From NCBI GenBank assembly GCA_016866975.1, contig VGKP01000007.1, positions 1 to 41,140 on the forward strand: a DNA stretch of 41,140 nucleotides. Reading direction: 5' to 3'. The position numbers and the translations under genes are program-made. How positions within the stretch are numbered: position 1 is the first letter of the stretch; each line of letters opens with the position of its first letter. The DNA is from Candidatus Pacearchaeota archaeon (GTDB taxonomy: Archaea > Nanobdellota > Nanobdellia > Pacearchaeales > GW2011-AR1). The notes beneath the pieces are model-generated. The model saw only the letters and a program-made list of their open reading frames with translations. It was not told where the DNA came from and ran no database searches. Below are positions 16,053-21,349 of the stretch, in pieces.

Positions 16053-16232
16053 TGCGGGAGGGAGGATTCGAACCTCCGTAGGCACTAAGCCACAGGATTT
16101 CCTAAGGAAACCAAGGTTTCCTTTTGGATCAACCTTCCTTTGAAGAAAGGTTCACCCATCCTGGTTGGATTCCGCTCTAACGAGCGAATGACTTCTTAAG
16201 TCCTGCCCTTTTAACCGCTCAGGCACCCCCGC
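16053..16232 (-). tRNA. tRNA-Leu(TAA) with 96-nt intron at 37/38 (intron 16099-16194)
   Basis: GCGGGGG/CTCCCGC acceptor, CAGGA-CTTAAG|A-TCCTG anticodon arm, long variable arm, GGAGG-TTCGAAT-CCTCC; BHB with CUUA/UAGG central helix. Confidence 0.92.
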
Positions 16233-16845: not shown

Positions 16846-17685
16846 ATGGAAACACTTAATCAATTAAAGAATGAATTACGTTTGAGGGGATTCTCTCCCC
16901 TCACTGTGAGAAATTATTGTTTCTTTGTCGATAAGTTTCTTAAAAGCAGCAATAAGAGTGACTTGGATGTGAATATTGATGATGCAAAGACATATCTTTC
17001 TGGCTTATTCGAAACTAAATCTAAAAACACTATTATGCTTGCGGCTGCCGCTCTGAAATTTTACTTTGTAGAGATACTAAAGAAAGATTTTGCACAAGTT
17101 AAGATGCCTAAGAAGGAGAAAAAACTACCGGAAGTCCTTTCTAAAGATGAGATAAGGTTACTTATTAATTCTACAGACACTGAGAAATCAAGACTTATGA
17201 TATCTCTTCTTTATTCTTCAGGACTAAGAGTATCTGAACTTGTCAATATGAAAGTGCAAGAAATCAATTTCAAGGAATTTACTGGATGGGTAAGAAGAGG
17301 TAAGGGATCTAAAGACAGAATGATTGTACTTTCCGAGGGACTTGTTAAAGATATTGAATCATATCTTAAAGATAGGAATTATACTTATCTTTTTTCCAAA
17401 GATAAACCCTTGACTACCAGGAATATACAGAAAATAATAATGGGCCTTAGGAAGAGGACTGGCATACAGAAGAAAATAACCCCTCATACTTTCAGGCATA
17501 GCTTCGCAACTCATCTTCTCGAGCAAGGAACGGACATAAGGATAATACAGGCTATGCTCGGGCACAGCTCCCTCAATACTACCCAGATATATACACATAT
17601 CTCTGGAGAACAGCTTAAGAAAGTCAAGAATCCCCTCGATCTCCTGCAGGTTCATACCTCTATGCCGCAACAAATCCCAGATTAA
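16846..17685 (+). CDS. xerA: Archaeal Xer-type tyrosine recombinase
   Basis: N-terminal LRLRGFS..T.RNY; GLRVSE, GKG.K.R, HTFRHSFATHLLE.G, LGHS...TT..YTH (R-K-H-R-H-Y). Confidence 0.9.
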   Translation: METLNQLKNELRLRGFSPLTVRNYCFFVDKFLKSSNKSDLDVNIDDAKTYLSGLFETKSKNTIMLAAAALKFYFVEILKKDFAQVKMPKKEKKLPEVLSKDEIRLLINSTDTEKSRLMISLLYSSGLRVSELVNMKVQEINFKEFTGWVRRGKGSKDRMIVLSEGLVKDIESYLKDRNYTYLFSKDKPLTTRNIQKIIMGLRKRTGIQKKITPHTFRHSFATHLLEQGTDIRIIQAMLGHSSLNTTQIYTHISGEQLKKVKNPLDLLQVHTSMPQQIPD

Positions 17686-17770
17686 GGTGCAAAGATTATT
17701 GCTTAGAATCTATTGTAGACACTTTTTAGAAGTAAGATATCATTAAAAGCAAGTATGTTCTTGATGTGAT

Positions 17771-17999
17771 GGCTGAACACGGATAAATCGGTTGTCCTGG
17801 AAAGGATGTGACCATCGAAGCCTCTGTCAGGAAAGCAGCTATAAATCAGGTGACTGGACTATAACTCACTTGACGAAACCTGTACCTGTTAAGCTTTGCA
17901 TGATGGCGCGGAAGAGATCACCTTGATAACATGTCGCAAGGTTAAGATTGATACGGCGATGTTGAAGGCACTTCTTCCACCGAGTCCAGCGCGTCAGCC
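17771..17999 (+). ncRNA. Candidate structured ncRNA of unknown class (~230 nt)
   Basis: Ends pair GGCUGA/UCAGCC; GGAA-tetraloop hairpin 17790-17813; several G.U-containing helices; loop 17854-17860 complementary to 17983-17989; TTAAAAG TATA-like box at 17743. Confidence 0.55.
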
Positions 18000-18009
18000 G
18001 ATATTCAGT

Positions 18010-18159
18010 ATGGCTAGGAAAGCAAGGAAAAAGGCAGGCAAGAAACGTTCTGGAGGGCGTGGAGCGAGTGGCAAGGGTAAGAATTCTAAGATTCGAAAGA
18101 TTAAGGCGTGGTTAAGAAGTAGAGGGAAAAAGAAAGTTAAGAAAAAAAGAAGAAGTTAA
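18010..18159 (+). CDS. 49-aa extremely basic (K/R-rich) protein
   Basis: MARKARKK...KKKRRS; 25 of 49 residues K/R, no D/E; the ORF-track start at 17896 lies inside the RNA structure and is unlikely. Confidence 0.65.
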   Translation: MARKARKKAGKKRSGGRGASGKGKNSKIRKIKAWLRSRGKKKVKKKRRS

Positions 18160-18223
18160 TTCTCCCGGTTTTTATATTCTTACTTCTTTCTCGGTAATTA
18201 CTCGTTCAGATATACTGAAAAAC

Positions 18224-19072: not shown

Positions 19073-21349
19073 GTGATGAAAGGGGTGAGTGCTAGTGTTT
19101 TTGTTTTGTCTGTTACTTTATTCCTCGTTATATTTTCACTAAGTTTTGTTTTGGCTGAGGAGGCCAAAGTTGTTGCTTCTTCCGAAACTGCTGCAGGCGT
19201 CTCTGCTTCTCCTGATTCTTCAAAGAGTGCTTCTACCAATACTGATGTAAAGACTGAAAGTGGCAGTTCATCTTCAAGCGCAATACCTGAGGAATATAAA
19301 GATGAGAAGCTTGAGGGCAGTACTTCTTTGACCCCTGGGAGTTGGCTTTATTGGTGGGAGGGTGTACGTACAAATTTTAGATCAGATGATGATAATGCCC
19401 GTCAAAAAGCACTTGAAGTTAAGTCTTCTATAGAAAAGGGAGACTTTGAGGCTGCTAAGAAGGCATATGAATCATACAGAGAATATTCAGCAAAATTAGA
19501 GAAAGAAGCCAATCCTGAAAAGAAAGAGAAAATACAGAGAGATTCTGCAGCTGTCAAGAATACAATTAAAGAACTTAAAGAAAGAGTTCCTGAAAAAGAC
19601 CGTAAGGAGCTTGTGGATGGAGTTGTTCAGCAAGCAGAGTTGAATGCAAAAGCAGTCGCTGTTGCTGATAAGATAAAGACACTTTGTCAAGAACTTGCAA
19701 AGATTGATCCTTCCCAATATGCAAAAACCTGTAGAGTTGACAAAGAAACTCCTAAGTGGAGACAGGATCAAGACAAGAAACTAACCGATTCTCAAAAAGA
19801 AGAAGTAAAAAAATTTAAGGATATCATGATTCAATGTATGCAGAGCAAAGGGGCGCAATGCAAGTGTGATGAAATCACTTTTAAGGACTTTGCAACACGG
19901 TGCAGTATTGTTGCTCCCCTTGTTAATGCGTGTGAGAATAAGGGAGATAAAGCATCGTGTGAGAAAATGGATGATGCGACAGAAGGGATTGAAGAGACAT
20001 TGCCTGAGCACTTGCAAGATGCTTTCGCAGATGTTCAAGAAGGTATTAATCGAGAGCAATTTAGCAGATTTTTACCCAAGGAATGTGAAGAAGCAAAAGC
20101 CAAGACTCCTGAAGAATGCTCTCTTGTCATGATTGAGAAACATGCTCCTGAATTATGTAAAGAAGAACTTAAAAAGCAAAAAGTAACAAATGAGCGGGAT
20201 GCACGTAGAATCTGCGAAGAAATAATGTTCAAGGAAAATACGCCAAAGGAATGCATTGATGCAGGAATAAAAGATCCCAGAAAGTGCGGTACTTTTATGT
20301 GTGAGAAAAATTTCCCGCAAGAGTGTAAAGATGCTGGTTTGAGTTGCAGTGATAGAAATTCTCCTAGAAGATGCGAAGAGATAATGAGATTACAAGGTGG
20401 TGGAGAGAGACGACCCCAGTTTTCTTCTACTTCAGGCTCAAGATGCAGGGAGATAAAGGATCCTGAAGACAGACTAAAGTGTTTTGACTCTGTTGATGCT
20501 GCAGTCAATAATGTTGCAGGCCATTATGGGGGTTTTGGTCCTGAAAACTTTGGCAGTTTTAACGATGAATTTTCATTTGAGGGCAATGGTCCTGGCGTAT
20601 CAGAACAAGGAAAGAGAATGAATACTGGCAAGGGTGTGAATCCTGCGAATTTTCCGCCTGAGTGCAGGCAAGCAGGTGCGACTACCAAAGAAGCCTGTGA
20701 GAAGATACTGATTCAGGCAAGCAAGAATCGAGCGAACAAGATGAGAGAATATGAAGAGAACTTTGCTCGACAATGTCTTGAGAAAGGGGGAAGATGGGAT
20801 TGCAGTTTCTCCAGTATAGATCCAAGCAATCCTTGCAGATGTTTCCAGGATGAACAGAGATTCAATAATGCCAATGAGGGCAATCAGTTTGGAAAAGATG
20901 ATCGGCGTTTTGATAATCGTCAACAAGGAAATCAAGGTAAATTCCCTGAACCTTGCAGGCAGAAAGGTGCAACTACTCCTGAGGCTTGCAGAGCAGTGAT
21001 GGAAGAATGGGGCAGGCAGCAGAGGGATCAGGGTGAACAACAGAGGCGAGATAATGATCAGAGGCAGAGAGAATTCCAGCAGCAGCAGGACCAGTTTAGA
21101 CAGGAGCAAGAGCGGTTTAGGCAAGAGCAAGACAAATTCAGAAATCAGCAGCCTCCTCAGCAGCCTCCTACTGGGACACAGCCTCCTGCAGGCACTCAGC
21201 CTCCATCAGAGACCTTACCTCCACCTTCGTCGCCACCTCCATCATCTCCTCCTCCACAAGATACTTCTTCTAGTTCTGGGACATCGGGAAGCAGCATTAC
21301 TGGTGGAGTTATTGCGGAAAATGATTTCTTAAGGTATTATTTTAGATAG
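19073..21349 (+). CDS. Large secreted Cys-rich repeat protein with Q/P/S-rich tail
   Basis: Signal peptide ending VLA; repeats FPPECRQAGATTKEAC, FPEPCRQKGATTPEAC, LPKECEEAKAKTPEEC; ends ITGGVI..NDFLRYYFR. Confidence 0.85.
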   Translation: MMKGVSASVFVLSVTLFLVIFSLSFVLAEEAKVVASSETAAGVSASPDSSKSASTNTDVKTESGSSSSSAIPEEYKDEKLEGSTSLTPGSWLYWWEGVRTNFRSDDDNARQKALEVKSSIEKGDFEAAKKAYESYREYSAKLEKEANPEKKEKIQRDSAAVKNTIKELKERVPEKDRKELVDGVVQQAELNAKAVAVADKIKTLCQELAKIDPSQYAKTCRVDKETPKWRQDQDKKLTDSQKEEVKKFKDIMIQCMQSKGAQCKCDEITFKDFATRCSIVAPLVNACENKGDKASCEKMDDATEGIEETLPEHLQDAFADVQEGINREQFSRFLPKECEEAKAKTPEECSLVMIEKHAPELCKEELKKQKVTNERDARRICEEIMFKENTPKECIDAGIKDPRKCGTFMCEKNFPQECKDAGLSCSDRNSPRRCEEIMRLQGGGERRPQFSSTSGSRCREIKDPEDRLKCFDSVDAAVNNVAGHYGGFGPENFGSFNDEFSFEGNGPGVSEQGKRMNTGKGVNPANFPPECRQAGATTKEACEKILIQASKNRANKMREYEENFARQCLEKGGRWDCSFSSIDPSNPCRCFQDEQRFNNANEGNQFGKDDRRFDNRQQGNQGKFPEPCRQKGATTPEACRAVMEEWGRQQRDQGEQQRRDNDQRQREFQQQQDQFRQEQERFRQEQDKFRNQQPPQQPPTGTQPPAGTQPPSETLPPPSSPPPSSPPPQDTSSSSGTSGSSITGGVIAENDFLRYYFR

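Follow-up and report, generated by a model that had tools for sequence, protein, structure and literature searches.

A conserved pseudoknotted RNA family with a companion microprotein gene in DPANN archaea

A stretch of 229 nucleotides (nt) on the plus strand of a Candidatus Pacearchaeota contig, at positions 17771-17999, is a member of a conserved family of pseudoknotted RNAs of ~225-235 nt. The family is absent from Rfam 15 and from the literature searched. A gene for a lysine-rich microprotein, which follows the RNA here, is strictly dependent on it in one direction: its open reading frame (ORF) never occurs without the RNA, whereas the RNA sometimes occurs without the ORF. The window analysed is the whole 41,140-nt stretch of this DNA (GenBank assembly GCA_016866975.1, contig VGKP01000007.1, positions 1 to 41,140 of the forward strand), and the assembly, G000, comprises 806 kb in 31 contigs and is 89% complete. 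The RNA lies inside a 325-nt gap 3' of a Xer-type tyrosine recombinase gene (xerA), and no ORF of at least 60 amino acids covers 17771-17999 on either strand. An original prediction, made from sequence alone, had placed an undescribed structured, pseudoknotted RNA at this site. Its coordinates and strand are correct, and the GC-richer island to which it pointed is real, with a G+C fraction of 0.485-0.495 compared with about 0.30-0.45 in the flanks.

Conservation and covariation of the RNA

A blastn search with 17740-18010 against 60 relatives returned matches of ~200 nt, with 69-78% identity, in 14 genomes from six families. As the single sequence folds only modestly better than its shuffles (plus strand, -73.1 kcal/mol, z -2.6; minus strand, -68.1 kcal/mol, z -2.06), the case for an RNA rests on comparative data. 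RNAalifold, run on a MAFFT alignment of 14 homologues, gave 62 pairs, of which 41 show compensatory changes; with the pseudoknot and an inner hairpin added, 92.9% of cells in these homologues are paired, compared with 33-42% when the partners are slid. An alignment based on a covariance model, R1, holds 53 copies, 51 of them distinct. In this alignment, which is fitted to R1 and with which the independent MAFFT/RNAalifold result agrees, a 71-pair structure has 95.2% of 3595 cells paired across the distinct copies (31-41% slid), and none of 500 shuffles matches it on any of five structure measures. Collecting homologues and examining their covariation, the check put forward with the original prediction, thus yields a conserved family with double-sided (compensatory) changes in 54 of the 71 pairs.

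The window itself scores 218.5 bits against R1 at 17767-18005 and carries the helix set, the pseudoknot, a TATA box of its own and a lysine-rich ORF (18010-18159) with the family motif. G.U pairs, on which the original choice of strand was partly based, are retained in 43-46 of the 51 copies. Because they would read C.A on the opposite strand, the plus strand is the functional one. The parts of the RNA are as follows, all on the plus strand.

17771-17999, plus strand: structured RNA of 229 nt, P1 to P9 and one pseudoknot, defined by R1 and covariation
17771-17778 / 17993-17999, plus strand: P1; all five modelled pairs covary; absent in one clade with AT-rich ends
17781-17784, plus strand: J1/2, GGAU; candidate alternative partner of GUCC at 17984-17987, as a nested helix between P1 and P2
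17788-17792 / 17979-17983, plus strand: P2, UCGGU/ACCGA; 97.6% paired; pair 28-245 is GC in 40 copies and AU in 11
17794-17807, plus strand: P3 hairpin with a GNRA tetraloop (GGAA here, GAAA in most copies); 98.8% paired; UA/CG covariation
17808-17909, plus strand: first domain, P4, P5 and P6; helices 88-100% paired; double changes in 22 of 28 pairs
17808-17816 / 17902-17909, plus strand: P4, first domain
17820-17838 / 17880-17894, plus strand: P5, first domain
17846-17852 / 17867-17873, plus strand: P6 hairpin, first domain
17854-17859 / 17984-17989, plus strand: pseudoknot, CUGGAC in the P6 loop with GUCCAG in the 3' strand between P2 and P1; covariation
17860-17866, plus strand: remainder of the P6 loop, UAUAACU; conservation of 90% or more across the 51 copies
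17910-17978, plus strand: second domain, P7, P8 and P9; helices 90-99% paired; double changes in 20 of 22 pairs
17910-17916 / 17971-17978, plus strand: P7, GGAAGAG/CUUCUUCC, second domain
17921-17932 / 17959-17968, plus strand: P8, second domain
17933-17937 / 17953-17957, plus strand: P9, second domain
17938-17952, plus strand: near-invariant 15-nt P9 loop, AAGGUUAAGAUUGAU; conservation in the 51 copies

Most of the pairings originally proposed are borne out. The terminal stem GGCUGA/UCAGCC (17771-17776 / 17994-17999), the GUCCU-GGAA-AGGAU hairpin (17794-17807), the CAGGUGA/UCACUUG hairpin (17846-17873) and the GGAAGAG stem (17910-17916 / 17971-17978) are all present in the sequence and kept by compensatory changes. 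The proposed pseudoknot also covaries: its helix is 97.1% paired in the 51 distinct copies, with covariation in four of its six pairs (UA/AU/CG, AU/GC and CG/AU/UA). One pairing fails, that of CCUUG (17921-17925) with CAAGG (17937-17941), where the supposed partner merely offers an invariant complementary GG; CCUU (17921-17924) instead pairs with AAGG (17965-17968), with UA/AU/GC and UA/UG/CG/GC covariation. The near-invariant loops of 7-15 nt point to contacts beyond self-folding.

There is a modest case that the 3' strand of the pseudoknot may pair alternatively with J1/2. This helix has 81% of its cells paired, compared with 9-50% slid, and seven double-change cells. Variants of J1/2 (GGAY) track the 3' strand, GAAC occurring with GUUC and GGGU with GCCC, while P3, which also contains GUCC, is unchanged. 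In one clade, P1 and the J1/2 element are both missing. Beyond this alternative, the 51-copy alignment holds no covarying pair set for a second independent pseudoknot. Since the J1/2 helix and the pseudoknot are mutually exclusive, the 3' strand may be bistable. Two segments competing for one strand is what a riboswitch would use, with the pseudoknot/J1/2 alternative controlling translation of the microprotein upon binding of a small molecule, and the compact multi-junction fold, invariant junction nucleotides and a pseudoknot near the start codon fit such a device. We nevertheless consider this very unlikely, as there is a single kind of downstream gene, without metabolic meaning, loci with the RNA alone would be useless as switches, one clade dispenses with P1 and J1/2, and the RNA has no similarity to any Rfam riboswitch.

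To place the RNA among known classes, the whole window was scanned against Rfam 15 with cmscan at gathering thresholds, which gave three tRNAs elsewhere and nothing at the candidate; a scan of 17650-18100 with permissive filters gave no match at E<=10. The original view that this is neither RNase P RNA, signal recognition particle (SRP) RNA nor a common riboswitch is upheld, and the findings that could have overturned the idea of an undescribed RNA, an Rfam match or a lack of conservation, did not appear. The assembly has its RNase P RNA at C6:8980-9378 (56.5 bits, E 1.2e-15, 399 nt for 288 model positions; gathering threshold 84), its SRP RNA at C26:1829-2088 (70.2 bits; gathering threshold 96.5) and its 5S rRNA at C25:5047-5161, with 16S and 23S rRNA on C6. 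The candidate therefore replaces none of these. As the RNase P and SRP RNAs fall below their gathering thresholds, standard annotation would miss both. The 23S rRNA match (G000:C6:2670-6513) spans 3844 nt for a 2987-position model, with about 850 nt of insertions, which could be introns as reported for Pacearchaeota rRNA genes (PMC6125680).

Individual classes were rejected as follows. Archaeal RNase P RNA (RF00373, including type T/M variants) gives no model match at E<=10 and has its own gene elsewhere, and the candidate is undetected in 113 of 151 genomes of the order. Archaeal SRP RNA (RF01857) has no model match on the candidate and is encoded elsewhere in the assembly. The same holds for 5S rRNA or a detached rRNA fragment, with no model match and with 5S, 16S and 23S rRNA present elsewhere. 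Group I introns are known in rRNA genes of Pacearchaeota and Woesearchaeota (PMC6125680); archaeal group I introns lie in rRNA genes (PMC6125680), and the candidate is intergenic, with its own TATA box and varying neighbours. In its pseudoknot, a hairpin loop pairs with the 3' tail that follows P2, unlike in P3-P7, and there is no RF00028 match. Known riboswitch classes have no Rfam match here, and the only associated gene is that of the microprotein, or there is none. As to ribosomal-protein leaders, the downstream gene encodes a microprotein without a Pfam, NCBIfam or PDB relative and occurs in only 33 of the 151 genomes. A type III antitoxin is set aside on repeat and toxin criteria, the RNA being a single non-repetitive unit and the protein a 49-amino-acid single helix.

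It is scarcely credible that the covariance models have missed a strongly diverged member of some known class, be it RNase P RNA, SRP RNA, a group I intron or an rRNA fragment. The sub-threshold RNase P and SRP RNAs of this assembly do show that DPANN RNAs are divergent, and group I introns do occur in Pacearchaeota/Woesearchaeota rRNA genes (PMC6125680). Set against this, the RNase P, SRP, 5S and ribosomal RNAs are already accounted for and no model matches at E<=10; the order of the pseudoknot strands is unlike that of RNase P P4 or group I P3-P7; and the element sits in no host gene, has its own promoter and is missing from three quarters of related genomes. A full-text literature search found no description of the RNA, and the Minerva preprint (10.64898/2026.09.22.753630) contains no DPANN or archaeal system of comparable kind.

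Promoter, spacer and microprotein gene

The sequence elements flanking the RNA are as follows.

17721-17739, plus strand: promoter-upstream box ACT-N7-AGT (17721-17733), then AAGATA; candidate operator
17742-17749, plus strand: TATA-like box ATTAAAAG, its centre ~25 nt before the first paired base of the RNA
18000-18009, plus strand: 10-nt spacer CGAUAUUCAG(U) between P1 and the ORF; copy of a recurrent yAUAUUCA box
18010-18159, plus strand: microprotein gene, 49 amino acids with 25 Lys or Arg, starting 10 nt downstream of the RNA fold
18169-18173, plus strand: TTTTT run 10 nt past the ORF stop codon; likely end of the transcription unit

The TATA-like box that the original prediction had seen ~25 bp upstream agrees in form and spacing with those of the stable-RNA genes of the assembly, as its tRNA, 5S, RNase P and SRP RNA genes have (C/T)TTAAAA-type boxes at the same spacing; TTTATATA-type boxes stand at the equivalent position in homologous loci. 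These features indicate that the RNA gene has its own promoter of the stable-RNA type. Upstream flanks and spacers were compared for 37 loci, the flanks being aligned by eye. In most of them, a semi-palindrome, (C/T)ACT-N4-5-AGT(G/A)(G/A)T, lies just 5' of the TATA box, about 35-55 nt before P1. It is a putative operator and a candidate site for a dimeric regulator. A semi-palindrome-like string, AGTAGCAAGATAA, also precedes one tRNA-Leu gene of the assembly (contig C1). A perfect 10-nt inverted repeat, AGAAGTAAGA at 17728-17737 and TCTTACTTCT at 18178-18187, brackets the promoter-RNA-ORF-terminator unit, with 440 nt between its arms. Of about 32 other loci, only two, L017 and L059, have similar bracketing repeats that outdo shuffles, and the one in the window may be due to chance.

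An ORF of about 41-75 codons, half of them for lysine or arginine, follows 35 of 37 RNA copies on the same strand. Its start is usually 0-15 nt past P1 (range, 0-60 nt, with one locus at 221 nt), and the family shares the core motif G-R-x-A/P-S-x-K-x-K-x-S-K-V/I-x-K-L/I. Over 1646 codons there is no stop in the ORF frame, compared with 103 and 165 in the other two frames, and the invariant Ser is encoded by both AGY and TCN codons, as the invariant Arg is by both AGR and CGN. The stop counts and codon usage show the ORF to be a genuine coding sequence. AlphaFold2 predicts residues 1-23 to be disordered and residues 24-48 to form a helix (mean pLDDT, 78), the kind of peptide that would bind RNA by charge. 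Comparison with Pfam, NCBIfam and PDB sequences found no relative of the microprotein. Two large protein searches returned only unnamed or "hypothetical" proteins, from Nanoarchaeota, Pacearchaeota or Woesearchaeota where organisms are given, and the ESM Atlas groups the microprotein with Nanobdellota hypotheticals. In one genome, G292, the microprotein after the second RNA copy (L074:4731-4940) has the core motif twice in tandem (..GRKPSKKSKESKVKRL.., ..SRKPSSKSKASKIRRL..), an internal duplication, and the first RNA copy (L074:1696-1931) has no microprotein gene.

The spacer at 18000-18009 contains no Shine-Dalgarno sequence and is too short for a promoter. With no space for a second promoter, co-transcription of the RNA and the microprotein ORF is the simplest reading of the layout. 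The sequencing runs listed are lake-water DNA metagenomes, with no RNA-seq run for this locus among them. Among the 37 loci, short spacers share the recurrent yAUAUUCA box and lack a Shine-Dalgarno sequence, and several longer ones have GGAGG-like sequence. Oligo-T acts as an archaeal terminator, and oligo-T runs lie directly 3' of P1 in about 6 of the 37 loci.

A conserved box immediately after P1, in spacers that mostly lack a Shine-Dalgarno sequence, together with a conserved pseudoknotted core of ribozyme-like size, could also suggest a processing ribozyme, in which cleavage or lariat-type capping at the box would yield a near-leaderless microprotein mRNA and a stable RNA. The lariat-capping ribozyme (GIR1, RF01807) is comparable in being a ~190-230-nt pseudoknotted RNA directly upstream of an ORF that lacks a normal mRNA leader; however, it belongs to eukaryotic rDNA, where it sits within twin-ribozyme group I introns; it is a relative of group I introns and has no similarity to this RNA. 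The yAUAUUCA box also occurs in loci where the ORF is distant or absent, there is no Rfam ribozyme match and no catalytic motif was recognised. A ribozyme, whose case is purely inferential, therefore strikes us as most improbable.

Distribution and inheritance of the module

Searched with R1, 151 genomes of the order gave 38 with the RNA, and a profile of the microprotein matched in 33 of the same 151. All 33 are RNA positive, each protein match adjoins an RNA copy, and the profile search found no microprotein in any of the 113 RNA-negative genomes. Copy numbers agree as well, genomes with two RNAs carrying two microprotein genes. The RNA, in turn, is not tied to the microprotein: G048 and G053, two species of a single genus, have the RNA alone (224 and 190 bits), followed by T5-T7 runs, with no microprotein anywhere in either genome at E<=1, and their P1 stems differ from each other by compensatory changes. 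In G292, one of the RNA copies, a diverged one, is likewise without a microprotein gene. These cases indicate that structural selection can maintain the RNA where the ORF is lacking.

In a phylum-level sample, the RNA was found in 13 of 150 high-quality genomes, all 13 of the same class. It is present in 6 of 17 species of its own genus, for which the 10-20% incompleteness of metagenome-assembled genomes cannot account. R1 scores are bimodal, mostly 130-250 bits or nothing, and a broader model, R2, found no extra weak copies in 40 relatives. The RNA-ORF module is thus accessory and sometimes duplicated, and it occurs in about one in ten to one in four of the relatives searched.

Phylogenetic analysis shows that the RNA does not follow taxonomy closely. 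Mapping of family labels onto the RNA tree takes 17 changes, compared with a possible minimum of 9 and a mean of 27 in shuffles. Clades with SH-aLRT support of 98-99 mix three families, and the approximately unbiased (AU) test rejects a single clade for the six own-genus copies (p 6e-5). This conflict between the RNA tree and taxonomy implies that copies have been exchanged horizontally or that ancient paralogues have been lost on a large scale. The search for a vehicle gave no sign of one: there is no viral carriage among the matches listed and there are no general terminal repeats. In IMG/VR, a 16-base motif hit 10 loci, none of which is the RNA by covariance model search, and a 14-mer gave, among the matches listed (at least 112 loci), none with the other family motifs. 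A motif scan of genome contigs was dominated by chance matches. Comparison with RNA-free genomes of the same genus, as possible empty sites, shows xerA present, downstream synteny lost and no insertion boundary. Terminal inverted repeats around the module are no better than shuffles in most other loci.

A patchy, taxonomy-incongruent distribution with duplicates, in which the RNA may stand alone and the protein never does, is reminiscent of addiction or defence modules of the type III toxin-antitoxin kind, in which the free polycationic microprotein would be harmful and the abundant structured RNA would sequester it. The order of promoter, RNA, (partial) terminator and small ORF is as in ToxI/ToxN, and a palindromic box stands at the promoter. 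The known systems (ToxIN, CptIN and TenpIN) similarly have a promoter, a pseudoknot-forming RNA, a (leaky) terminator and a protein gene, are accessory and spread horizontally, and allow the RNA without the protein but not the reverse. Known type III antitoxins, however, are short tandem repeats processed by a ~170-amino-acid endoribonuclease toxin, and neither tandem repeats nor such a toxin are found at this unit (PADLOC was not searched). This RNA, in contrast to theirs, is under strong sequence conservation, and we know of no antitoxin RNAs with 70-78% identity and invariant loops across orders. Nor is the RNA found on viral contigs among the matches listed, and no mobile-element ends were found. 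We hold this explanation to be unlikely.

The neighbourhood of the RNA varies from locus to locus, including genes for SMC, RNase HII, thermosome, aIF2-gamma and others (named from N-terminal sequences only). The original prediction had set the RNA downstream of xerA. Pfam supports a Xer-type recombinase upstream in the window, but xerA is not a regular neighbour elsewhere; the gene that stays with the RNA is that of the microprotein. The genes on either side are:

16846-17685: Xer-type tyrosine recombinase (xerA), Pfam PF00589 (1.3e-45) plus PF13495
18224-19024, minus strand: DsbA-like gene, divergently oriented, on the far side of the gap and the short ORF

The DsbA/thioredoxin-like protein has an N-terminal C2H2 zinc-finger-like stretch, and its gene forms a divergent pair with that of a 758-amino-acid protein (19073-21349, plus strand) with no Pfam match. 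On the other side, 0.6 kb upstream of xerA, lies a tRNA gene (16053-16232, minus strand; Rfam tRNA, 41.3 bits), assigned to Leu by the original prediction, with an intron of ~99 nt in the anticodon loop. In an RNA-free genome of the same genus, G002, a gene-free and locally GC-rich stretch of ~350 nt lies downstream of xerA (L090:2400-2720). It matches neither R1 nor any Rfam family and is possibly another unannotated RNA.

A proposed ribonucleoprotein and its meaning

The reading we favour, with moderate confidence, is a dedicated ribonucleoprotein (RNP) made from one transcript, in which the RNA is the functional core and the microprotein its cofactor and probable self-limiter. According to this model, 17742-18173 would form one small transcription unit, with a stable-RNA-type promoter driving the ~229-nt RNA. 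The RNA would fold into nine helices in two domains, closed by P1 and P2 and locked where the P6 loop forms the pseudoknot with the 3' tail. Transcription would then run on into the 49-codon gene for the lysine-rich protein, with its predicted disordered tail and one basic helix. The conserved RNA would be able to act alone, presumably in trans; the microprotein would be its private RNA-binding cofactor and, when bound to its own leader, would probably limit its own synthesis. In some lineages, oligo-T between the RNA and the ORF would release RNA-only transcripts, and the module would have been inherited partly horizontally or via old paralogues. An RNP is favoured because the RNA exceeds the protein in size, complexity and conservation, has invariant loops that folding does not require and a stable-RNA-type promoter, and stands alone in some genomes, and because the protein is a charge-rich single helix found only beside the RNA. 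The original prediction had offered an undescribed ribozyme, a riboswitch-like leader or a scaffold RNA; persistence of the RNA in two species that lack the ORF speaks for a scaffold or RNP RNA rather than a pure leader or riboswitch.

Several points weigh against an RNP. Co-transcription, physical binding and action in trans are steps that we infer from sequence. An ORF without its own promoter, 10 nt past the fold, is exactly what is expected of a purely cis-acting leader. The invariant loops have no convincing complementarity to 16S, 23S, 5S, SRP or RNase P RNAs; the best is that of the P9 loop with SRP RNA (p about 0.01 among 35 tests). For an RNA of 13 helices, a 49-amino-acid helix looks undersized as a partner. 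Lastly, the RNA-only cases (two related species, the diverged copy in G292 and three others, weaker or unexamined) could be recent losses of the ORF.

The same evidence bears on the alternative that the RNA is an autoregulatory 5' leader. Here the microprotein, e.g., a nucleoid- or RNA-coating polycation, would be the functional product, and its excess would bind the cis sensor RNA and block the start codon 10 nt downstream. The immediate adjacency of RNA and ORF with no separate promoter, the absence of the microprotein wherever the RNA is absent, and the conserved box between P1 and the AUG would all be explained, and the 3' strand, with its possible second partner, could act as an expression platform. 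Leaders of ribosomal proteins (L1, L10, L20, S4 and S15) likewise have a structured, sometimes pseudoknotted 5' region that directly precedes a gene whose product, small, basic and RNA-binding, is, as here, expected to bind its own leader. Compared with these, this RNA is much larger and far more conserved, and its protein is non-ribosomal with no other known RNA target. Known protein-binding leaders mimic the primary RNA target of the protein, and no such target was found among the rRNAs, SRP and RNase P RNAs. Moreover, the protein to be regulated is far smaller, simpler and less conserved in sequence than the RNA, which, unlike the ribosomal-protein leaders, survives without the gene in two species, conserved, covarying and followed by terminator-like T runs. 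We therefore regard a leader as rather unlikely.

Among known RNPs, bacterial RNase P (RnpB and RnpA; archaeal RF00373) resembles the proposed particle in its two-domain RNA of a few hundred nucleotides, with terminal helices and a long-range pseudoknot, and in the pairing of an RNA that is the conserved core with a small and very basic protein. There is, however, no sequence or covariance model similarity, the pseudoknot strands are arranged otherwise and the assembly has an RNase P RNA of its own. RNase P is also universal, whereas this RNA is accessory and patchy, with a single-helix protein of 40-75 amino acids on the same transcript. OLE RNA of Bacillota, with OapA/OapB/OapC, is another large, ornate and conserved RNA of patchy occurrence beside a dedicated partner gene, and the biochemical role of its RNP was unknown at discovery. 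It differs in being bacterial, ~610 nt long and located inside an operon, with a membrane-protein partner, while this RNA is archaeal and ~230 nt, with its own promoter and a soluble-looking polycationic microprotein.

A more ambitious version, which we regard as doubtful, is that the RNA would be the catalytic or ligand-sensing core of a new archaeal RNP, with a bistable 3' strand toggled by the microprotein and a ~450-bp promoter-RNA-ORF module spreading horizontally in DPANN.

To our knowledge, few RNA classes are both large and intricately folded, and those known from archaea are almost confined to rRNA, tRNA, RNase P RNA, SRP RNA and guide RNAs. The present RNA, of nine helices and ~230 nt and with a microprotein of its own, is confined to symbiotic archaea of ultra-small size, among which it occurs as an accessory, exchangeable module would. 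The size of the RNA suits in vitro probing, peptide binding and cryo-electron microscopy, which makes the question directly testable. If the RNA proves to be a leader, no other protein-sensing leader known in archaea would approach its complexity. If instead it forms an RNP with a cellular target, it would be a new kind of RNA machine, which may bear on how DPANN archaea regulate themselves or deal with their hosts.

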